In this document: positions 4,393 to 52,023 of the stretch, piece after piece
Position numbering within the stretch: the stretch's first letter is position 1
Layout: every line of letters starts with the position of its first letter
DNA from: Candidatus Woesearchaeota archaeon
Lineage (GTDB): Archaea > Nanobdellota > Nanobdellia > Woesearchaeales > ARS49
Direction: 5' to 3'
NCBI GenBank assembly: GCA_038868995.1
Contig: JAWCRZ010000004.1
Location: 4,967-68,966, forward strand
DNA: 64,000 nucleotides
The notes under the pieces: model-generated
What the model was told of the DNA's origin: nothing
The model's database searches: none
The model's input: only the letters and a program-made list of their open reading frames with translations
Translations under genes and position numbers: made by a program

Positions 4393-4434
4393 ACAAATAG
4401 TTGCCTGATGGGTTCTGAAGGCGCACTCTGCAAT

Positions 4435-4569
4435 GGTTCTGTCAACTTAATGGTGCTGGCCGCTCTGCCTCGCTATGCAGGGGTCATTTTTCCTCCGCAC
4501 CTGCGAGGAGGAGAGAAAAATGAGTCCAGAGGACCAAAGGCAAGTTAGCACCAGAAACTTGACTTAACC
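4435..4569 (+). mobile_element. MITE copy 1 (orientation GGTKCTGTCAAC...GACTTAACC)
   Basis: 135 bp and non-coding. It has imperfect terminal inverted repeats and a central hairpin. It is flanked by the direct repeat CTCTGCAAT (4426-4434) / CTCTGCAAG (4570-4578). It is near-identical to the copies at 7072, 22090, 45793 and 51795. Confidence 0.8.
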
Positions 4570-4589
4570 CTCTGCAAGTGTCCTAAATC

Positions 4590-4597
4590 TTTTTAAA
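4590..4597 (+). promoter_or_regulatory. Putative TATA box (TTTTTAAA) for the VIT1-family gene
   Basis: The TATA centre lies about 26 nt upstream of ATG 4620 and 17 nt upstream of ATG 4611. This suggests a leaderless transcript starting at the second ATG. Confidence 0.4.
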
Positions 4598-4610: not shown

Positions 4611-5318
4611 ATGGCAAGTATGGCAAAAAGAGAGGTGATGCACGAGCGCGGCTCTGCGGTTATCCGTGATGTTATTCTTGGCGGCCAGGATGGGCTGGTG
4701 AACGTGCTGGGCATTGTTCTTGCTGTTGCAGAGGCGACGCAGAGCAGGTACATCATTCTCATTTCAGGCCTTGCAGCCACTTTTGCAGAGTCGATATCAA
4801 TGGCTGCTGTCGCATATACGAGCGCGAAAGCCGGCAGGGAGTTTTACCGGAAGAAGCGCGAGGAGATTGAGGTAATGGTTAAGAAAAATCCCGAGTCAGC
4901 ACGCCCTGTTTTGCGGGAGATGTTTTCCAGGTGCGGATTGCAAGGGACTTTGTTAAACAAGGCAATCCAGTCGTTAATGTCCGACAAAAAGCGTCTTCAC
5001 GAGGCGTGGGTTTCCGCAGAGATGCGGCAGGCAGAAGAATTTGAGCATCCTGTCAGGGATGCAGTCATTGTCGGACTTGCGGCAATTGTCGGTTCTCTTG
5101 TTCCTCTGGTTCCTTTTATTTTTGTGCCTACTGGCGTTGCCATGTGGACTACGTTGGGAATTGCAACTCTTACCTTGTTTGCCAGCGGAGCAATAAAGGC
5201 AAAATATACTGCTGCCGACCCTTTCAAGTCAGGGCTTGAGATGGCTGTTGTCGGAATGACTGCGGCTATTGCGGGCTATCTGATTGGCGTGGCATTGGGG
5301 GCTTTGCCGATAGCATGA
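4611..5318 (+). CDS. VIT1/CCC1-family iron/manganese transporter
   Basis: It has the VILGGQDGLVNVLGIVLAVA motif, a helical cytoplasmic insert and C-terminal TM helices. An alternative start is ATG 4620. Confidence 0.8.
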   Translation: MASMAKREVMHERGSAVIRDVILGGQDGLVNVLGIVLAVAEATQSRYIILISGLAATFAESISMAAVAYTSAKAGREFYRKKREEIEVMVKKNPESARPVLREMFSRCGLQGTLLNKAIQSLMSDKKRLHEAWVSAEMRQAEEFEHPVRDAVIVGLAAIVGSLVPLVPFIFVPTGVAMWTTLGIATLTLFASGAIKAKYTAADPFKSGLEMAVVGMTAAIAGYLIGVALGALPIA

Positions 5319-6268: not shown

Positions 6269-7064
6269 AGTGTTGTTTTTGGATGGAGCCACAACAATGG
6301 CGTTGCATGAGCACTTGATGCTCCGGCGGCAGCCTGCATTGGTTTTGTCTCATTTTGTTCCTGCAACTGTAACTTTTGGCAAAAACGTTCATGTTGCCTC
6401 TCTGCCGGAAGCGTGCAAAAACAGCAGTTTGCCGGCTGTCAGAAGGATGACTGGTGGCGAGATTTTATACCACGCTGAATCCGATATTACTTATGCGTTT
6501 ACCAGTGTGCCTGAAGATTCTGAGTTGAATATTTCTAAAGCCGCATTATCTGTAATGCGGAATTTGATGGATGGGCTCGAATGTCTTGGCATTAAAACTT
6601 ACTCAAGGCGTGGAACTTCAATTTTTGCGAAAGTTGGTAATGTATATAAGAAGATTGCAGGCAGCGCACCCTGCCAGGAGGTTGGCAGGCCGTTTTTGGT
6701 TCATGGAAGCATTTTTTATGATGTGCCTGACTTTGAACTTCTTTCAAAAGTATATTGTTACTCTCCTGAACAGTTGCGGCAAGGCATTACGTGGATTAAG
6801 GAGCACAGGAATATTTCATTGGGGCAGGCATACGAATCAATCAGGATTGGTTTTATTAATGGCAGAAAGTATGAGGCGCGCTCATTGAGCGATGAAGAGA
6901 TTGCTGATATAAAGCGGCTGGCTGAAAAGTATGCAGGCCGGCTGCATTATCAAGGTACTGGCTGTGAGCGCCCAGGCAAGGCGTGCGCTATGGAATTTGG
7001 CACGCATATGGAGCTGAAAGACGTTGCTCCAAAGTACATCAAGCCCGACCGTATTATAGAATAA
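6240..7064 (+). CDS. Lipoate-protein ligase / octanoyltransferase family protein (LplA/LipM-like catalytic domain)
   Basis: It has RRMTGGEILYH and the lysine motif KKIAGSA characteristic of the BPL/LplA/LipB fold. It lies next to lipA and the E1/E2 genes. Ligase versus octanoyltransferase cannot be decided by eye. Confidence 0.75.
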   Translation: MEQKIRLIPEVLFLDGATTMALHEHLMLRRQPALVLSHFVPATVTFGKNVHVASLPEACKNSSLPAVRRMTGGEILYHAESDITYAFTSVPEDSELNISKAALSVMRNLMDGLECLGIKTYSRRGTSIFAKVGNVYKKIAGSAPCQEVGRPFLVHGSIFYDVPDFELLSKVYCYSPEQLRQGITWIKEHRNISLGQAYESIRIGFINGRKYEARSLSDEEIADIKRLAEKYAGRLHYQGTGCERPGKACAMEFGTHMELKDVAPKYIKPDRIIE

Positions 7065-7071
7065 TTGTTCG

Positions 7072-7211
7072 GGTTAAGTCAGGTTTCGGGTGCTAACTTG
7101 CCTTTGGTCCTCTGGACTCATTTTTCTCTCCTCATCGCAAATGCGGAGGAGAGAAAAATGACCCCGGCAAAGCCGGGGCAGAGCTGCCCGCACCATTAAG
7201 TTGACAGCACC
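7072..7211 (-). mobile_element. MITE copy 2 (reverse orientation)
   Basis: 140 bp, flanked by a perfect 9-bp direct repeat AATTGTTCG (7063-7071 and 7212-7220). The central hairpin is TTTTTCTCTCCTCATCGCAAATGCGGAGGAGAGAAAAA. Confidence 0.85.
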
Positions 7212-7225
7212 AATTGTTCGAAAGC

Positions 7226-7233
7226 ATTATAAA
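7226..7233 (+). promoter_or_regulatory. Putative TATA box (ATTATAAA) for the E1alpha-E1beta-E2 operon
   Basis: It lies 6 nt after the MITE target-site duplication and about 41 nt before ATG 7271. That ATG is preceded by an AGAGGAAG SD-like element. Confidence 0.4.
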
Positions 7234-10948: not shown

Positions 10949-11190
10949 CAGCCCCGCATTTGCTGGAAATCTGAAAATGCCGTGAAGAACATCTGCAAAC
11001 TATTCTTTAATACCTCTTTTCCTTTCTTCGTCATGGTGCATTCTTTTTGTATGTTGAAACCAGCCTTTTTCCTTTAAATCTTTTGCACTGTGCTTTGTAA
11101 ACCAAGCCGGCGTTTTTTTATTAGTTTTTACTCATGCCTTTGACCTGATGATTTGGAAGCGCGCAAGGACCGAACAAGCGTCTCTGTTTT

Positions 11191-11394
11191 TTATGCACAC
11201 ACGCCCAAATCAGATTTGATGTTATTTTTGATGCGGTAAGAGGCATAACCCATTTTTGTTTCAATCTCGATTAACAGCCCTCGTTTTACATAGTTCGGGT
11301 CAATTTGCCTATATGTTGACTCTTCCCAAAACTCTGTTCGGATTCTTCTCGCATTCTTAGAGTCATTGACAGTTGTGTTTCTAATGTTCATCAA
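11191..11394 (-). CDS. Small hypothetical protein (67 aa)
   Basis: The only support is an ATGA overlap with the bcp stop, which suggests coupling. No motif was recognised. Confidence 0.3.
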   Translation of the reverse strand: MMNIRNTTVNDSKNARRIRTEFWEESTYRQIDPNYVKRGLLIEIETKMGYASYRIKNNIKSDLGVCA

Positions 11395-21999: not shown

Positions 22000-22089
22000 A
22001 GTTTTATTCTTGTAATGCTCAACGTTGCTGTATTTGATATAACAAGCTTTTGCCATATTTTACTCGCTGACGAAGAAAGGAAGTTAAGG

Positions 22090-22229
22090 GGTTAAGTCAG
22101 GTTTCTGGTGCTAACTTGCCTTTGGTCCTCTGGACTCATTTTTCTCTCCTCCTCGCAAATGCGGAGGAGAGAAAAATGATTTCAGCGAAGCTGAGGCAGA
22201 GCAGCCAGCACCATTGAGTTGACAGCACC
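22090..22229 (-). mobile_element. MITE copy 3 (reverse orientation), the best-preserved copy
   Basis: 140 bp, with a perfect 9-bp direct repeat AAGTTAAGG at 22081-22089 and 22230-22238. It has a perfect 14-bp central stem, TTTTTCTCTCCTCC / GGAGGAGAGAAAAA. Confidence 0.9.
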
Positions 22230-22244
22230 AAGTTAAGGAAAACT

Positions 22245-22252
22245 TTATAAAA
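22245..22252 (+). promoter_or_regulatory. Putative TATA box (TTTATAAA); the downstream gene looks leaderless
   Basis: The centre is about 26 nt upstream of ATG 22274. It lies 6 nt after the MITE target-site duplication. Confidence 0.45.
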
Positions 22253-22273: not shown

Positions 22274-22564
22274 ATGGCAGAGCATTTTATGGGCGCGTTT
22301 TTTGTTATCGCAATAATACTGTTCAGCATTGCTGGTGCTGGAACAATACTGAAATTTACTGAGAGCAGGCGTGAGTGCAGCACCAACAGCGAGTGCGGCA
22401 ATGGCTATTGTGGAAGTGATTTCAAGTGCCATCCTTTTCCGGTTATTGAAAACACGATTGTGAAGAATGACTGGACCACTCCGTCCGCGATTCTTGGGCT
22501 CGCTATTGTTTTTGCTGCCATGATTTTGAGAAGAAGGCAGCAGCCGCCAAGGCAGTTTTACTGA
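22274..22564 (+). CDS. Small two-TM protein with a Cys-rich loop
   Basis: TM helices at both ends flank the loop CSTNSECGNGYCGSDFKC. Confidence 0.5.
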   Translation: MAEHFMGAFFVIAIILFSIAGAGTILKFTESRRECSTNSECGNGYCGSDFKCHPFPVIENTIVKNDWTTPSAILGLAIVFAAMILRRRQQPPRQFY

Positions 22565-35549: not shown

Positions 35550-35963
35550 TTATATCAATGCTTTTTCGATTGGTTTTCGTGTTATTTCTTTTATCTTGTC
35601 AAAATTTGCGTCATTGCTTATCATTGTCTTTATTCCACGGGAGCGCATGGTTGCATAATGAATCGCGTCGCGCGGATGCAATTCTGAGTGTGAAAAAATG
35701 TCAACTGCCTCGCTTATTACAGAATGAGAGGCATCGCAGACATCAAGATTTCTTAATGCAAGGATTGTCCTTGCAGTTGCTATTGCCTGTTCTTTTCCTC
35801 CTATTTTTTTGACAGCCCACATAACTTCACCAACCGTCAGAGCTGACGTGCAAGCAAGCAGTTTTCCTGTCTCTATTGCATCAATTATTCTGCGTGCTTT
35901 CTGCCCAAGCGCTCCTTGGTCCAATGCCGCTGTTGCAAAAACATTTGAATCGATGTAAATCAT
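35550..35963 (-). CDS. vapC: PIN-domain ribonuclease toxin
   Basis: It starts MIYIDSNVF with the conserved Asp and ends ...SNDANFDKI. It is 137 aa and overlaps the antitoxin by 4 nt. Confidence 0.85.
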   Translation of the reverse strand: MIYIDSNVFATAALDQGALGQKARRIIDAIETGKLLACTSALTVGEVMWAVKKIGGKEQAIATARTILALRNLDVCDASHSVISEAVDIFSHSELHPRDAIHYATMRSRGIKTMISNDANFDKIKEITRKPIEKALI

Positions 35964-36226
35964 AATTTTATTCCCGCCCTACGTGCACGTTCTTCATATT
36001 CTTCTATCGCATGCGTGTTTATTTTGACGCTTTTCTTGCCTATGCTTTTCGCTATTTGTTCGAATGCATGGGCAGCATTGATTTTTTCCTCCTTCTTTAC
36101 AATGAGCTCACCTTCTTTTTCTATGAATGTGACCATGCTTCCGGGCGCGATTTTGTATTCATCCCTGAACACTTTTGGAATTACAACCTGCCCTTTTGGT
36201 CCAACTTTTGTTTTGACTTCAACCAT
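35960..36226 (-). CDS. vapB: AbrB/SpoVT-fold antitoxin
   Basis: It has VGPKGQVVIPKVFRDEYKIAPGSMV, a swapped-hairpin AbrB-type motif. It is 88 aa and lies directly upstream of the PIN gene. Confidence 0.8.
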   Translation of the reverse strand: MVEVKTKVGPKGQVVIPKVFRDEYKIAPGSMVTFIEKEGELIVKKEEKINAAHAFEQIAKSIGKKSVKINTHAIEEYEERARRAGIKL

Positions 36227-44206: not shown

Positions 44207-44223
44207 GGGTTTATAAATGTTGC
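44207..44223 (-). promoter_or_regulatory. Putative BRE/TATA promoter of module A (minus strand GCAACATTTATAAACCC)
   Basis: This 17-mer is 16/17 identical to the rps6e promoter at 45768-45784. The TATA centre lies about 36 nt from GTG 44177 and about 72 nt from ATG 44141. Confidence 0.45.
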
Positions 44224-44396
44224 TGTAGGGCTGTGCAGCCAAGTTTTGTGTCTAAGCAGCTTTGTCCAAGGCTTGCCCTGGGTGATTTTCTTCTCGACTT
44301 GCGTGGGGAAAATCAGTCCCTGGGACCAGAGCTGTGGCAACATTGTCAGTTAATTTGATAGCGCCGTGTAGGGCTTACAGATAGTCAAGAAGCGAA

Positions 44397-45351: not shown

Positions 45352-45747
45352 TTACTTGGCTTCTTCTTTCTTCTCTTCTGCAGGGGCTGCAAGCGGCTCT
45401 TTTCCTTCTTTGGTTACTTTGAGGTTGACCTGAGAAATCTTCGGATGAATGGTGTTGCCGCATACGGTTTTGCGCTGCCTGATGCCTTTTGCTTTCATCT
45501 TAAGGCCTACTCCTTTTACTGCGAGTATTCTTTTGCGCGCAAAGCCCTCAACGTCTTTTCTCATTGGAAAACCGCAGTAGTCGCTTCCGCCTGTGACGAC
45601 GAACTCATAGCCGGTTAGGCCAATTGCGTCTCCGGAAATGGTGTCGCCTATTTTCTTGCCCAGAAATGTCTTGGCTTCCGGTTCCCGTATTTCTTTCTGT
45701 ACGCACCTGCCATTTTTTGTACCAATTACGACTTTGAAACTGACCAT
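45352..45747 (-). CDS. rps6e: 30S ribosomal protein S6e
   Basis: It has FKVVIGTKNGRCVQKEI...GDAIGLTGYEFVVTGGSDYCGFPMRKDVEG...RKRIL. Confidence 0.95.
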   Translation of the reverse strand: MVSFKVVIGTKNGRCVQKEIREPEAKTFLGKKIGDTISGDAIGLTGYEFVVTGGSDYCGFPMRKDVEGFARKRILAVKGVGLKMKAKGIRQRKTVCGNTIHPKISQVNLKVTKEGKEPLAAPAEEKKEEAK

Positions 45748-45767: not shown

Positions 45768-45784
45768 GGGTTTATAAACGTTGC
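45768..45784 (-). promoter_or_regulatory. Putative BRE/TATA promoter of rps6e (minus strand GCAACGTTTATAAACCC); the gene looks leaderless
   Basis: The TATA centre is about 27 nt upstream of ATG 45747. Confidence 0.5.
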
Positions 45785-45792
45785 GGTGACTT

Positions 45793-45917
45793 GGTGCTGT
45801 CAACTTAATGGTGCCGCGCTGGCCTGACTTTTCTTCTCCCCTTGCAAGTGCGTGGAGAGAAAAATCATCACGACAACGTCGAGGCAGCGCGGCCAGCACC
45901 AGAGAGTTGACTTAACC
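45793..45917 (+). mobile_element. MITE copy 4
   Basis: 125 bp, with a perfect 9-bp direct repeat CGGTGACTT at 45784-45792 and 45918-45926. It has the same termini, GGTGCTGTCAAC...GTTGACTTAACC. Confidence 0.85.
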
Positions 45918-45929
45918 CGGTGACTTTTG

Positions 45930-46280
45930 CTATTGGATAAGAGAAAGTTTGCCTGTTATCTTGTCTATTTTTTCTTCTTTGTCAGGTCCTATTCCAAGGC
46001 AGGTTATTGTTCCGGGTTTGAGGTGCGTGTGGCCTGCATCTGTTATCAGTGCAACAACAAGCCCTGCGTCTTCCGCTTTTTTCTTGTATTCGTTAAGCTC
46101 TTGCACGTCTTTGACTTTCAGAATGATTTTCTTCATTCCTTGCTCCTGCCATTTTTTGATGTCGTCCTTGTGTGATTTTAATACGGCACCTACAGAGGCG
46201 TGGCTTGCCTGCGCTGCCATTTTTCCTTTTGCCAGCTTTAAGTCGTCGCGCACCAAAATAACTTGCTTGTATTCTGCCAT
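45930..46280 (-). CDS. pth2: Peptidyl-tRNA hydrolase, archaeal/eukaryotic Pth2 type
   Basis: It has KQVILVRDDLKLAKGKMAAQASHASVGA and ITDAGHTHLKPGTITCLGIGP. Confidence 0.95.
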   Translation of the reverse strand: MAEYKQVILVRDDLKLAKGKMAAQASHASVGAVLKSHKDDIKKWQEQGMKKIILKVKDVQELNEYKKKAEDAGLVVALITDAGHTHLKPGTITCLGIGPDKEEKIDKITGKLSLIQ

Positions 46281-47876: not shown

Positions 47877-49775
47877 TTATCTCTTTTCAGCTATTTCCTT
47901 TAGCAGCTCCTGTATGAATGCTTCTTTTTTTACAGGTCCGAATACCTTGTTGTCGCGTGTTCTTATCTGCAACGCACCCGATTGCTCTTTTTCTCCGAAG
48001 ACAAGTATATAATTGACTTGGTCAATCTGTGCATTTCTGACTTTTTTGTTTATTGTTTCTGCGCTTGCATCGAGTGTTGCTCTGATGTGGTGTTTGCGCA
48101 TTTCATCAACCAGTTTTTGCGCGTCTAATACAAACCTGTCTGCTATTGACAGCACACGGACTTGTTCCGGTGATAGCCAGAGTGGGAATTTTCCTGCGTA
48201 ATGTTCTGTCATCACTCCAATGAATCTTTCCAGGCTTCCAAGTATTGCGCGGTGTATCATGACGCACGGATGCTTGGTGTTGTCTGCTCCTTCGTATTCT
48301 GCTCCCATTCGCAATGGCATTTGGAAGTCAAGCTGTATGGTTGCTAATTGCCAGTCCCTGCCGAGTGCGTCTTTTACGTCAAAGTCAATTTTTGGCCCGT
48401 AGAACGCGCCTTCTCCCGGCTTGACTTCGTATTTAATTTTCAATTCATTAAGAGCGTCAGCAAGCGCGATTTCTGCCTTTTCCCATAGCGCTGCTGCGCC
48501 CATTGCCTTTTCTGGCTTTGTTGAAAGTTTTGCTTTGTATTGGAATTTGAATGTGTCGTTGTATACATATTTTACAAAGTCAAGCACGTTTTTGATTTCG
48601 TCTTTTATCTGCTCCGGCGTGCAGAAGATATGCGCATCATCTTGTGATAATTTTCTTACTCTTGTCATGCCTCCGAGTGTGCCGCGTACTTCATTGCGAT
48701 GCAAAAAGCAGAAATCAGCAATGCGCAGTGGCAAATCTCTGTAGCTTCTTGTTTTTGACTTGAAAATCAGGACGTGAGAGGGGCAGTTCATTGGCTTTAG
48801 TGAGAATTCTTCATCGTCCACTTCAAGCACGAACATGTTTTCCTTGTAATGCGCCCAGTGTCCTGATAATTCCCAGAGTGCTTTGTTGAATAGTTGTGGC
48901 GTGATGACTTCCTGATAGCCGCGTTTCCAGTATTGTTCTCTTATGAAATTCTGCAGCTCATTGTACATTATGGTGCCTTTTGGCAATAAGAATGGCGAGC
49001 CGGGGCTCCATTCGTGCGTCATGAATAATTCAAGCTTTGCTCCTATTTTTCGGTGGTCTCTTTTTTCTGTTTCTTCCATTAATTTTTCGTAATCGTGCAG
49101 TTCTTTTGTCGATGGGAATGAAATTCCATAAATGCGGATTAGCTGTTTGTTTTTCGGGTCTCCTCTCCAGTGTGCTGCTGCTATTTTGGTGAGCTTGAAT
49201 GCCTTGACGTAACCTGTTGACGGCACGTGTGGCCCTTCGCATAAATCTATGAAGTCGCCGTCGCGGTATGCTGTGAGTTTCCATCCTTTTTTCCTGAAGT
49301 CCTCTGCGAGTTCTATTTTGTATGGATTGTCGCCTTCAAATTTTTTGACGTCTGCAAGCGTCCATTCAATGCGCTCAAAGGGATGGTCCGCATTTATGAT
49401 TTCCTGCATTTTCATTTCTATTTTTTCAAAGTCCTCCGGTGTTATTTTCAGGTCGTCAAAGTCATAGTAGAATCCTTCCTCTACCGCTGGCCCGATTGTC
49501 GGCTTTGCATTTGGATAAAGGTGTTTTACCGCGTGTGCGAAGATGTGCGCAGTGCTGTGACGCAAGGTGTCTTTTCCGCCTTTGTCTGCAAAGGTCAGAA
49601 TTCTTATTTTTGCGTCTTTCTCAATTGGCCGCATCAAGTCGCGCACTTCACCATCAACTTCTATTGCCAACGCATCTTTTGCCAGTTTTTTTCCTATGCT
49701 TTCAGCTGCCTGCATGCCTGTTGATTTGTCTGGCAGTTGCAGGACTTTTCCATCCGGCAGAGTAAGCTTGAGCAT
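47877..49775 (-). CDS. thrS: Threonyl-tRNA synthetase (TGS + editing + class II catalytic + anticodon-binding domains)
   Basis: 632 aa. It has HSTAHIFAHAV (editing-domain Zn motif), class II motifs (FRNE...RVRKLSQDDAHIF, GAFYGPKID) and a C-terminal anticodon-binding domain. Confidence 0.97.
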   Translation of the reverse strand: MLKLTLPDGKVLQLPDKSTGMQAAESIGKKLAKDALAIEVDGEVRDLMRPIEKDAKIRILTFADKGGKDTLRHSTAHIFAHAVKHLYPNAKPTIGPAVEEGFYYDFDDLKITPEDFEKIEMKMQEIINADHPFERIEWTLADVKKFEGDNPYKIELAEDFRKKGWKLTAYRDGDFIDLCEGPHVPSTGYVKAFKLTKIAAAHWRGDPKNKQLIRIYGISFPSTKELHDYEKLMEETEKRDHRKIGAKLELFMTHEWSPGSPFLLPKGTIMYNELQNFIREQYWKRGYQEVITPQLFNKALWELSGHWAHYKENMFVLEVDDEEFSLKPMNCPSHVLIFKSKTRSYRDLPLRIADFCFLHRNEVRGTLGGMTRVRKLSQDDAHIFCTPEQIKDEIKNVLDFVKYVYNDTFKFQYKAKLSTKPEKAMGAAALWEKAEIALADALNELKIKYEVKPGEGAFYGPKIDFDVKDALGRDWQLATIQLDFQMPLRMGAEYEGADNTKHPCVMIHRAILGSLERFIGVMTEHYAGKFPLWLSPEQVRVLSIADRFVLDAQKLVDEMRKHHIRATLDASAETINKKVRNAQIDQVNYILVFGEKEQSGALQIRTRDNKVFGPVKKEAFIQELLKEIAEKR

Positions 49776-49797
49776 GGAATTTTATGATGCCAATATG

Positions 49798-49805
49798 TTT
49801 AAAAA
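49798..49805 (-). promoter_or_regulatory. Putative TATA box (minus strand TTTTTAAA); thrS looks leaderless
   Basis: The centre is 26.5 nt upstream of ATG 49775. Confidence 0.45.
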
Positions 49806-49852
49806 TGTTGTGCAGAAGCGGCGGTATTGAAAAGTTTTCAATGGGGTGCCCC

Positions 49853-50090
49853 GGTTTCACAGCGTGAGACTTCCTTTTTTCCTCCCCTCGCCTGCGCAGT
49901 AAAGAAAAAAGGAACCTTGGCTTTGCCAAGGCGGGGTCTGCGCTGAACCTTTCAATACAGCCGCAGAAGCGGTGCTGCCAACCAAATGGTGCTTGCCGCA
50001 CTGCCTCGGCTTCGCTGATGCCTCCATCCTCCGCATATGCAAGAGTAGAAAAATTCGCTTGAACAAAAGTTCAGGCGCGGGGGAAACTTT
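49853..50090. mobile_element. Two degenerate MITE copies, abutting and in opposite orientations (about 49853-49974 reverse, about 49981-50090 forward)
   Basis: Both align loosely but collinearly with the intact copies. Shared features are GGTGCTGCCAACCAAATGGTGCTTGCC, CCTCCGCATATGC and a central TTCCTTTTTTC...GAAAAAAGGAA hairpin. No target-site duplications are recognisable. Confidence 0.45.
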
Positions 50091-50792
50091 ATGTATGACA
50101 AGCAACGTAGACAAGATATGCTCGATGAGTTGCGTGCTGAACTGAAGAGAAACGCTGACAGGACATACAATTATAATATGTTCTTCAAGGAGCCGATAAA
50201 GGCGTATGGAGTGCGCTATCCCGTATTGAGAAAAATTGCAAAGGATTTCTTTCCTGAAAATCTTGATGGCTGTGATTTGGAGGAATTGTGCGAAGAGTTA
50301 TGGCAGTCCGGCTGGCATGAAGAATCTGTTGTCGCTGTTTATTGGGCGAAGCGCGGCGGCATTGCGGGCGTCGCATTAATGAAAAAGTGGCTTGACGAGT
50401 ACGCGTCAAATTGGGCGCAGGTTGATGACATTTGCTTGAATGTCCTGTGCCCATTGCTGGAAAAGGATTCAAGGCTTTTGCCGGAAATAAAGAGCTGGGC
50501 AAAATCAAGAAATTTATGGACGCGGAGGGCATCCGCAGTTTCTTTTGTCTACCCGTGCAGGCGTGGTTTGTATCTGAAAGATGTTTTTGAAGTTGCAGAG
50601 CAATTGTTTCCTGACAAAGAGGACTTGATTCAGAAAGCTTATGGATGGGCTTTGCGCGAAGCCGGCAAAAAACATCAGAAAGAAGTGTTCAACTTTGTAA
50701 TGAAGCACAAAAATAAAATCGGAAGAACCGCCTTGCGGTATGCAATTGAGCTGATGCCGGAAAATCTGAAAAGGCAGTTGATGAAGAAATGA
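50091..50792 (+). CDS. DNA alkylation repair protein (AlkD-like HEAT-repeat glycosylase family)
   Basis: The C-terminal half (W..SRNLWTRRASAVSF...EDLIQKAYGWALREAGKK...) is collinear with the B. cereus AlkD pattern (N.W..RAA...FIQKAIGWVLRE) as I recall it. Confidence 0.75.
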   Translation: MYDKQRRQDMLDELRAELKRNADRTYNYNMFFKEPIKAYGVRYPVLRKIAKDFFPENLDGCDLEELCEELWQSGWHEESVVAVYWAKRGGIAGVALMKKWLDEYASNWAQVDDICLNVLCPLLEKDSRLLPEIKSWAKSRNLWTRRASAVSFVYPCRRGLYLKDVFEVAEQLFPDKEDLIQKAYGWALREAGKKHQKEVFNFVMKHKNKIGRTALRYAIELMPENLKRQLMKK

Positions 50793-50894
50793 CTATTTTA
50801 CGAATTCAACATTCGGCATATTTTGGAATTCTTTGTCACCGGTCAGAAATTTGATTATTGCATAGCTGTCGAAGAAATAAACAGGAACTGCCAT
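50793..50894 (-). pseudogene. Possible internally deleted PIN-domain (VapC-like) remnant, 33 codons
   Basis: The translation is MAVPVYFFDSYAIIKFLTGDKEFQNMPNVEFVK. It joins a PIN-like N-terminal strand with Asp directly to a PIN-like C-terminal TGDKEF motif. This rests on motif resemblance only. Confidence 0.25.
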
Positions 50895-51037
50895 AATGCT
50901 TTTCTTGCTTCGTCCTTTAATTTCTGGGTAAATTTGCTGAATTTTAATGGCTTAAGTCCTTGTAAAACGTTTTTAACCTTGGGCAGAAAAAGCAGGTCCG
51001 CGTCTTGATTTTCTTTTAGATTTAATCTATTAACCAT
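50855..51037 (-). CDS. Small ORF (60 aa), possibly a former antitoxin partner of the PIN remnant
   Basis: Support comes only from its position upstream of and overlapping the remnant. No motif was recognised. Confidence 0.2.
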   Translation of the reverse strand: MVNRLNLKENQDADLLFLPKVKNVLQGLKPLKFSKFTQKLKDEARKALWQFLFISSTAMQ

Positions 51038-51178
51038 TTCGCTTTATTATTAAGCCCAGGGAATTTTTCCATTTCTTGGTTCGTGAGTGTATAAGCATCA
51101 TAAGTTATACAAAGTATAACTAATTATAATTAACAAAGTTTTCGCATGACTTTCCGTAAAATTTCCAGACTGCAAAAA

Positions 51179-51186
51179 TTTATATA
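51179..51186 (+). promoter_or_regulatory. Putative BRE/TATA (AAAATTTATATA) for the Nudix gene
   Basis: A canonical TTTATATA is centred about 32 nt upstream of ATG 51215, in an AT-rich spacer. Confidence 0.5.
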
Positions 51187-51214
51187 GAAGAATTTAAATG
51201 AAATTGTTTGAAAA

Positions 51215-51794: not shown

Positions 51795-51928
51795 AATTCT
51801 GTCAACTTAATGGTGCTGGCCGCTCTGCCCCGGCTTTGCCGAGGTCATTTTTCCCTCCTCCGCATTTGCGAGGGGAAAATGATTTCAGAGGACCAAAGGC
51901 AGGTTAGCACCAGAAACTTGGCTTAACC
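51795..51928 (+). mobile_element. MITE copy 5
   Basis: 134 bp and collinear with copy 1. The first two bases differ (AATTCTGTCAAC) and no clean 9-bp duplication is found. The right flank TTCTGTCAG resembles the element's own left terminus. Confidence 0.7.
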
Positions 51929-51942
51929 TTCTGTCAGAAAGC

Positions 51943-51950
51943 TTTATAAA
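51943..51950 (+). promoter_or_regulatory. Putative TATA box (TTTATAAACC context) of the rps19e operon
   Basis: It lies 14 nt after the MITE end. The predicted TSS is about 51973, giving a leader of about 50 nt. Confidence 0.45.
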
Positions 51951-51977
51951 CCACCCCTCTTGCCCATTATTTATTCT

Positions 51978-51998
51978 GGATGCTTCTTCGGAACATCC
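51978..51998 (+). other. Stem-loop with a UUCG tetraloop at the predicted 5' end of the rps19e operon leader
   Basis: The sequence is GGATGCTTC-TTCG-GAACATCC, an 8-bp stem with one bulged C. It is followed by SD-like GAGGT at 52011-52015 and ATG 52024. Confidence 0.3.
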
Positions 51999-52023
51999 AA
52001 ATAAGACCGCGAGGTCAAAAATT

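Follow-up and report, generated by a model that had tools for sequence, protein, structure and literature searches.

In a 64-kb stretch of DNA (hereafter the window, meaning the whole stretch that was analysed) from the genome of a tiny DPANN (Woesearchaeota-like) archaeon of a hot-spring metagenome, short repeats have transposed to positions at a fixed distance upstream of TATA boxes that were present before the elements arrived, and one promoter has been struck more than once. It is likely, with a probability of roughly 0.8, that these insertions are the work of a DDE transposase that acts in trans and measures its target from the core promoter, i.e., from the BRE and TATA box. The nearest proteins to the S6e and E1 alpha proteins of the window are named Candidatus Woesearchaeota or Nanoarchaeia; the coding share of the window is ca. 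93%.

Elements, Termini, and Target Duplications

The repeats are prokaryotic MITEs and are non-autonomous. The first-pass annotation of the window had listed five copies, each with an adjoining TATA-like box, and had named VIT1, E1 alpha, S6e, and S19e as downstream genes; the copies, the boxes, and the Pfam identities of these genes were all borne out. The list itself was too short, since a repeat scan, alignment, and HMM search recovered eight elements in the 64 kb: the five listed copies, two sister-family elements (B and C), and one truncated copy of the main family. The gap given for each element below runs from the element terminus to the TATA box, the one reference point used for every copy.

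4435-4569, minus strand: main-family MITE copy 1, 135 bp, gap 20 bp (the exception); duplications CTCTGCAAT (4426-4434) and CTCTGCAAG (4570-4578); L end facing the promoter; 11-nt spacer, TATA box TTTTTAAA (4590-4597), VIT1 ATG at 4620, 30 nt on
7072-7211, plus strand: main-family MITE copy 2, 140 bp, gap 14 bp; perfect duplication AATTGTTCG (7063-7071 and 7212-7220); R end, spacer AAAGC, TATA box ATTATAAA (7226-7233), E1 alpha operon
22090-22229, plus strand: main-family MITE copy 3, 140 bp, gap 14 bp; perfect duplication AAGTTAAGG (22081-22089 and 22230-22238); spacer AAAAC, TATA box TTTATAAA (22244-22251), ATG at 22274, 30 nt on
44233-44366, plus strand: sister-family element C, 134 bp, gap 15 bp; perfect duplication TGTAGGGCT (44224-44232 and 44367-44375); TATA box TTTATAAA (44210-44217) of a minus-strand gene of 728 aa
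45793-45917, minus strand: main-family MITE copy 4, 125 bp, gap 14 bp; perfect duplication CGGTGACTT (45784-45792 and 45918-45926), tabulated with the gap as AAGTCACCG beside the minus-strand TATA box; R end, spacer CAACG (minus strand), TATA box TTTATAAA (45778 to 45771), S6e ATG at 45747, 31 nt on
49821-49962, plus strand: sister-family element B, 142 bp, gap 15 bp; duplication GCAGAAGCG (49812-49820 and 49963-49971); TATA box TTTAAAAA (49798-49805) of the minus-strand ThrRS gene, ATG at 49775, 30 nt away
49971-50055, minus strand: older main-family copy, truncated, R half only (model positions 48-140)
51799-51928, minus strand: main-family MITE copy 5, 130 bp left, gap 14 bp; duplication TTCTGTCAG on the right (51929-51937), remnant TTCTGTCA on the left (51797-51804); L end, spacer AAAGC, TATA box TTTATAAA (51943-51950), S19e operon

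Elements of the main family are 125-140 bp long, and the complete members of the three families together span 125-142 bp; all eight elements are non-coding, the ORF listing contains no reading frame of at least 60 aa inside them, and no Rfam match was obtained anywhere in the window. The main family is bounded by the L end GGTTAAGTCA and the R end GTTGACAGCACC, which read GGTGCTGTCAAC and GGTTAAGTCA when set in inverted orientation. These terminal inverted repeats are imperfect and ca. 26 nt long (L and R match at 15-19 of 26 positions in main-family copies 1-4), and the ends read 5'-GG...CC-3'. Every element folds as a whole into a long imperfect hairpin, with folding energies of -48 to -66 kcal/mol across all families. 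A central hairpin between a T tract and an A tract is common to the three families (e.g., 7110-7165, 45835-45870, and 49873-49915); each strand carries a run of T4-T6 ca. 45-50 nt in from either element end, the central tract being T5 in four of five main-family copies. Such T runs could stop archaeal transcription that enters from either side.

The target duplication is 9 bp long and has a different sequence at each element; it is perfect in five elements, matches at 8 of 9 positions in copy 1, and has 8 of its 9 nucleotides remaining at copy 5. The duplicated 9-mers share no common motif and are of mixed composition rather than AT-rich, as CGGTGACTT and TGTAGGGCT illustrate. Relative to the promoter both orientations occur, as previously proposed, with the R end facing it in copies 2, 3, and 4 and the L end in copies 1 and 5. 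Upstream genes may be very close: the left duplication of copy 2 shares the two last nucleotides of the LplA stop codon (7062-7064), and only 3 nt separate the far duplication of copy 4 from the stop codon of PTH2 (45930-45932).

The earlier listing of copy 5 among the intact copies does not hold; this copy lacks the GGTG of its R terminus together with the last base of its left duplication (51797-51806). This terminus appears to have been lost by an 11-nt deletion between two CTGTCA repeats, and such a deletion would immobilise the copy. Presence/absence polymorphism was not found; no contig skips copy 4 in runs X1-X3 or copy 3 in runs X1-X2.

Spacing Between Element and TATA Box

The gap is exactly 14 bp in copies 2-5 and in the truncated copy as it stood before the insertion of element B, and 15 bp in families B and C. 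The 14 bp consist of the 9-bp duplication and a 5-nt BRE-like spacer, with AAAGC, AAAAC, CAACG, and CAACA as the pentamers. The distances of 6-14 bp given by the first-pass annotation were right about adjacency; the values themselves had to be replaced, because the duplication and the element end had been mixed as reference points, and the TATA box of copy 3, formerly placed at 22245, starts at 22244. The TATA box is not part of the element; this candidate explanation was ruled out by the variable duplication that lies between the two.

Within the 3,421 nt of non-element intergenic DNA in the window, 15 TATA-like octamers differ from TTTATAAA by at most one mismatch, so that for an element inserted at random into intergenic DNA, the probability of meeting one of them at a single exact offset, on either side, is P = 0.009. 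The comparison with random intergenic placement that had been proposed for the whole genome was run on the window, and the probability under such placement that five or more of six main-family copies would lie at the exact offset is P = 3e-10. Perfect TTTATAAA octamers occur five times in the 64 kb, always in intergenic DNA, and four of the five are occupied by a MITE. In seven of the 13 promoters that were measured, 30-31 nt separate the start of the TATA box from the ATG, the spacing expected for leaderless archaeal mRNAs; in this respect the boxes look like genuine promoters.

Before insertion, the target lay at very different distances from the upstream gene: -2 nt for copy 2, 3 nt for copy 4, 21 nt for family C, 81 nt for copy 3, and 90 nt for copy 5. 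Were every position within each spacer open to the target, the joint probability of four exact hits, as computed from the coordinates, would be ca. 2e-6; since the room upstream varies and the TATA side stays constant, selection alone does not explain the phasing.

The ThrRS promoter received two independent insertions 1 nt apart, the now truncated main-family copy and then family B. The truncated copy begins right behind the duplication of B; when B and one of its duplications are taken out, the R terminus of the truncated copy comes to lie 14 bp from the ThrRS TATA box, and the restored order at this promoter reads TTTAAAAA, TGTTG, TGCAGAAGC, GGTGCTGCC.

Copy 1 remains an exception. Compared to locus L041 of a related genome, its locus has ca. 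197 extra nucleotides between the last codons of the hydrolase gene and the block CCTAAATC-TTTTTAAA; ca. 53 nt of these go beyond copy 1 and its duplication (in comparison with L041 and L042) and occupy window positions 4393-4434 and 4579-4589. This surplus indicates more than one event at the locus and could be left over from an older one; a second GGTTCTG motif is found within it at 4397-4403. Two ways of bringing copy 1 into line were dropped: taking TAAATCTT (4584-4591) for its box, and postulating that a canonical insertion had occurred earlier at this promoter.

Empty Sites in Related Genomes

Relatives of the window organism were located through homologs of S6e and E1 alpha; the loci (L032-L044) comprise ca. 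60-70 kb of distinct sequence, some of them overlapping, and their identity to the window reaches 85-88% for S6e and 87% for E1 alpha. The main-family HMM had no match in this ca. 60-70 kb of related sequence. All seven orthologous promoters were found in these relatives with the BRE/TATA present, the gene order kept, and the element absent, as follows.

Copy 4 site, L036: PTH2 stop codon, 17 nt, TTTATAAA
Copy 5 site, L032: TAG-AAACC-TTTATAAA-CCACC
Site of element B and the older truncated copy, L032: TTTAAAAA-TGTTG, element absent
Family C site, L032: TGCGCTATA-GCAACA-TTTATATA
Copy 3 site, L039 and L040: GAGTTTAGG-AAAGC-TTTATAAG, ATG 30 nt downstream
Copy 2 site, L041 and L042: TAA-CG-AAAGC-CTTATAAA
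Copy 1 site, L041 and L042: block CCTAAATC-TTTTTAAA

These empty sites demonstrate that each BRE/TATA is older than the insertion next to it and was not brought in by the element.

Several further differences between the window and its relatives were recorded along the way. In L032 (6000-6140), the divergent start codons of ThrRS and of a DNA-alkylation-repair gene are each 22 nt away from one TTTAAAAA box, which looks like a single shared two-way TATA box; in the window (49776-50120), the MITEs are located on the repair-gene side of the TTTAAAAA box, and the repair gene has a weak box of its own, TTTATGTA (50088-50095), with its ATG at 50118, 30 nt on. Between the repair gene and a NUDIX gene, the window contains 422 nt without a long ORF (50793-51214), where the gap in L032 measures 26 nt. 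A PIN/MazE-type toxin-antitoxin pair (35550-36226), situated between genes of 683 and 299 aa, is absent from this position in a relative (L037/L039). The leader of the S19e operon, ca. 55-80 nt long (51951-52023), contains the hairpin GGATGCTTCTTCGGAACATCC, followed by GAGGT before the ATG; the hairpin is conserved in L032 (4707-4790, reverse strand), where bases of both the loop and the stem differ, and the leader may be a ribosomal-protein leader.

The S6e promoter region also varies among the relatives. Loci L034 and L035 encode an S6e protein identical to that of L036; at this promoter (L034, 7444-7595, and L035, 3959-4110, against L036, 622-671), the contigs differ by an unrelated insert of ca. 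101 nt, which carries four CGGAAATT motifs in alternating orientation. It follows directly on the stop codon of PTH2 and ends 17 nt short of the S6e TATA box; this insert may be another small mobile element. In L032 (9848-10001), the closest relative with 88% S6e identity, ca. 120 nt of unrelated, hairpin-rich DNA extend from PTH2 to the S6e TATA box, with a possible imperfect duplication (ATCATTCCA and TGCATTCCA) around them, ca. 5-6 nt before the TATA box; here a third element family may have reached the same promoter.

Insertions Elsewhere in the Source Metagenome

Loci outside the window were collected by matching Logan contigs of the source study to the elements, the loose contig ends being the flanks of other copies; together with the eight elements, the sample includes ca. 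35 such ends. The window was probably assembled from run X1, and the extra loci represent the same population and no independent organism; many of these contig ends are present only as mixed consensus sequences. Among the single contig ends absent from the window, six have a TATA box at offset 14; further ends include one at 13/14 and two weak ones at 14-15. The six flanks with offset 14, each read from a single contig, are the following.

Outside locus, single contig: CTCTTCTGA-TAAGC-TTTATAAA
Outside locus, single contig: AAAACATAG-CAACT-TTTTTAAA
Outside locus, single contig: GGTTTATCG-CAAAG-TTTTTATA
Outside locus, single contig: AGCCCATAA-GAAGG-TTTATAAA
Outside locus, single contig: TTTATAAA-AGTTA-CGAGAAGAG
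Outside locus, single contig: TTTATAAA-TGTTA-TGCGCGAAT

In grouped R-end flanks (two to five contigs per group), each consensus contains a TATA octamer at offset 15-22, the adjoining 9 nt being blurred. Flanks of family B outside the window show TATATAAA at 15 bp. Among L-end flanks, in which the copies are not told apart, one group has a TATA box and another has none, with about half lacking it overall; this split is expected if only one side of an element faces a promoter. Run X2 contains, at a different locus, a second case of double occupancy, where family B once more lies directly against the R end of a main-family copy. The study's only metatranscriptome yielded nothing from this organism.

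Proposed Targeting Mechanism and Competing Explanations

We infer that the fixed spacing reflects the target choice of a transposase, and that the enzyme is a DDE transposase, possibly of the Mutator-like type. Supplied in trans, it would mobilise the MITEs and capture its target just where the BRE-like, A-rich pentamer begins on the upstream side; counted back from the first base of the TATA box, two cuts staggered by 9 bp would lie at 5 (or 6) and 14 (or 15) bp, and gap repair would then duplicate the 9 bp between them. The BRE, the TATA box, the transcription start, and the 14 bp upstream would thereby remain unchanged, and an upstream gene whose last codons lie in the target would have its end preserved. 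Such a site would do no harm, would offer a "safe haven" where 93% of the genome is coding, and could explain a density of ca. eight elements per 64 kb. The TATA box is a palindrome, and insertions past it on the gene side have probably been removed by selection. What the enzyme recognizes is a separate matter: it is possible, although doubtful, that the transposase docks on the promoter-bound TBP/TFB complex, or on the DNA bend of this complex, and cuts at its upstream edge without reading the DNA sequence.

The transposase was sought in several places. No Pfam match to a transposase was obtained among 50 ORFs of the window; an autonomous partner with matching ends was found neither in the window nor in the related loci or in three scans of contig collections; and the non-coding stretches at 10949-11390 and 50793-51214 contain no long ORF. 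The conserved R-end 18-mer produced chance matches only in genome and metagenome contig collections, as did the 17-nt core of the R end and a 22-nt L-end pattern in a viral contig collection. An apparent element match in locus L026 proved to be a coding repeat and was discarded.

As an alternative to target choice, the elements could have inserted at random into intergenic DNA, with purifying selection in a very compact genome retaining only those copies that spare the upstream gene and the promoter. The ca. 93% coding share favors this explanation, and so do the spacers between stop codon and TATA box, which originally measured 12 nt at copy 2 and 17 nt at copy 4, with few positions to choose from, and which are even shorter in relatives (3-7 nt). 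It fails, however, at copies 3 and 5, where 81-90 nt are free further upstream and the gap is still exactly 14 bp; more distal sites would have been equally harmless, since with the 9-bp duplication the 14 nt in front of the TATA box stay whole wherever further upstream an element lands. At least six resolved loci beyond the window repeat this offset, as do second elements that join an occupied promoter; random insertion with purifying selection is thus improbable. Positive selection for useful copies among unaimed insertions, for example copies that terminate read-through transcription or insulate the promoter, would account for the long hairpin in every family (-48 to -66 kcal/mol) and for the central T4-T6 run carried by each strand, a sequence that looks like an archaeal oligo-T terminator whichever way the element is read; in relatives, the promoter directly adjoins the stop codon of the upstream gene, and no terminator lies between them. 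Yet a terminator or insulator works at any distance upstream of the BRE, which leaves phasing to the single nucleotide unexplained, and relatives with identical gene order manage without the elements; we consider such selection very improbable as the cause of the spacing.

The repeats could also be immobile, as a conserved regulatory module upstream of promoters or a small-RNA gene that was copied together with them; they do always adjoin promoters, and their hairpin architecture is conserved. Against immobility, each copy bears the footprint of transposition in its variable 9-bp direct duplications, both orientations are found, the elements are missing from seven of seven orthologous promoters in relatives, Rfam provides no match, and the BRE/TATA lies outside the duplication and is therefore not part of the repeated unit; hardly any weight can be given to this possibility. 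The first-pass annotation had left the choice between targeting of DNA just upstream of the BRE/TATA and mere tolerance of insertions there; the fixed spacing, the variable far side, and the repeated hits favor targeting.

Relationship to Known Mobile Elements

The closest parallel is found in the bacterial elements TnGBS, ISLre2, and ISKra4 (p-MULT 3/4), which insert 15-17 bp before the -35 box, generate 8-9-bp duplications, and carry inverted ends of 18-39 bp that terminate in C (Guerillot et al., 2014; PMC3942029). Their transposase is a Mutator-like DDE enzyme with an N1-N2 signature linked to promoter targeting, and like ends go together with insertion in both orientations (PMC3942029). 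The window MITEs resemble these elements in their fixed distance from a core promoter element, 14-15 bp before the TATA box, and in their 9-bp duplication, ends of ca. 26 nt, and terminal G:C pair. In contrast to TnGBS, ISLre2, and ISKra4, which are bacterial, target sigma-A promoters with -35/-10 boxes, and encode their own transposase, the window MITEs are archaeal, occur at BRE/TATA promoters, and are non-coding. Their behavior would best be termed analogous to that of p-MULT 3/4, the promoters concerned not being of the sigma-A type.

Among eukaryotes, Ty3 of yeast and the tRNA-gene-targeting retroelements of Dictyostelium occupy a nucleotide-fixed position relative to an initiation complex that contains TBP; in TFIIIB, TBP is combined with Brf1, a relative of archaeal TFB. 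These retroelements use an integrase, their targets are Pol III genes, and their tethering to a protein complex has been demonstrated. The window MITEs follow the same safe-haven logic in a compact genome, whereas tethering to a protein complex is only one possibility for them.

The ISH6 family (p-MULT 2) is mostly archaeal and Mutator-like; Guerillot et al. suggested a preference for AT-rich, promoter-like DNA, and the family duplicates its own AT-rich target motif of 8 bp, AANATNTT (PMC3942029). Unlike ISH6, the window elements have duplications of 9 bp and mixed composition, with the TATA box 5-6 nt outside the duplication. Prokaryotic MITEs include the SM1-SM4 elements of Sulfolobus and the Correia elements of Neisseria. 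The window elements agree with prokaryotic MITEs in general: they are short, non-coding, hairpin-forming, multicopy, and intergenic, with inverted ends and duplications. In a MITE census that recorded a Woesearchaea genome with 105 MITEs per Mb, the word TATA is absent (PMC11602168), and promoters go unmentioned in a 2026 survey of insertion sequences in archaea (PMC13343696). In the literature, no report of a fixed promoter distance was found for any archaeal MITE, and the full-text literature offered nothing relevant on the targeting of TATA, BRE, TBP, or TFB by archaeal MITEs or insertion sequences. What would be new here is promoter-anchored transposition on the archaeal BRE/TATA promoter, made visible through non-autonomous elements.

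Implications

Promoter-anchored transposition is documented in bacteria (TnGBS, ISLre2, and ISKra4) and in eukaryotic retroelements, and archaeal promoters, like those of eukaryotes, work with TBP and TFB; no report of such transposition was found for archaea. If the cut always fell at the upstream edge of the BRE, this would explain how mobile DNA can be dense and yet spare the genes in a tiny, 93%-coding genome of the symbiont type. The flanks of the elements constitute an annotation-free list of promoters for an organism beyond cultivation, and the transposase, if it were found, could serve to insert DNA directly upstream of promoters in archaea. If docking on TBP/TFB were true, the system would be an archaeal counterpart of the tethering of Ty3 to TFIIIB, and the MITE flanks would act as a naturally made footprint, marking which promoters are occupied in this uncultivated DPANN archaeon; whether the archaeal pre-initiation complex serves as a landmark for a DNA transposase becomes a directly testable question.
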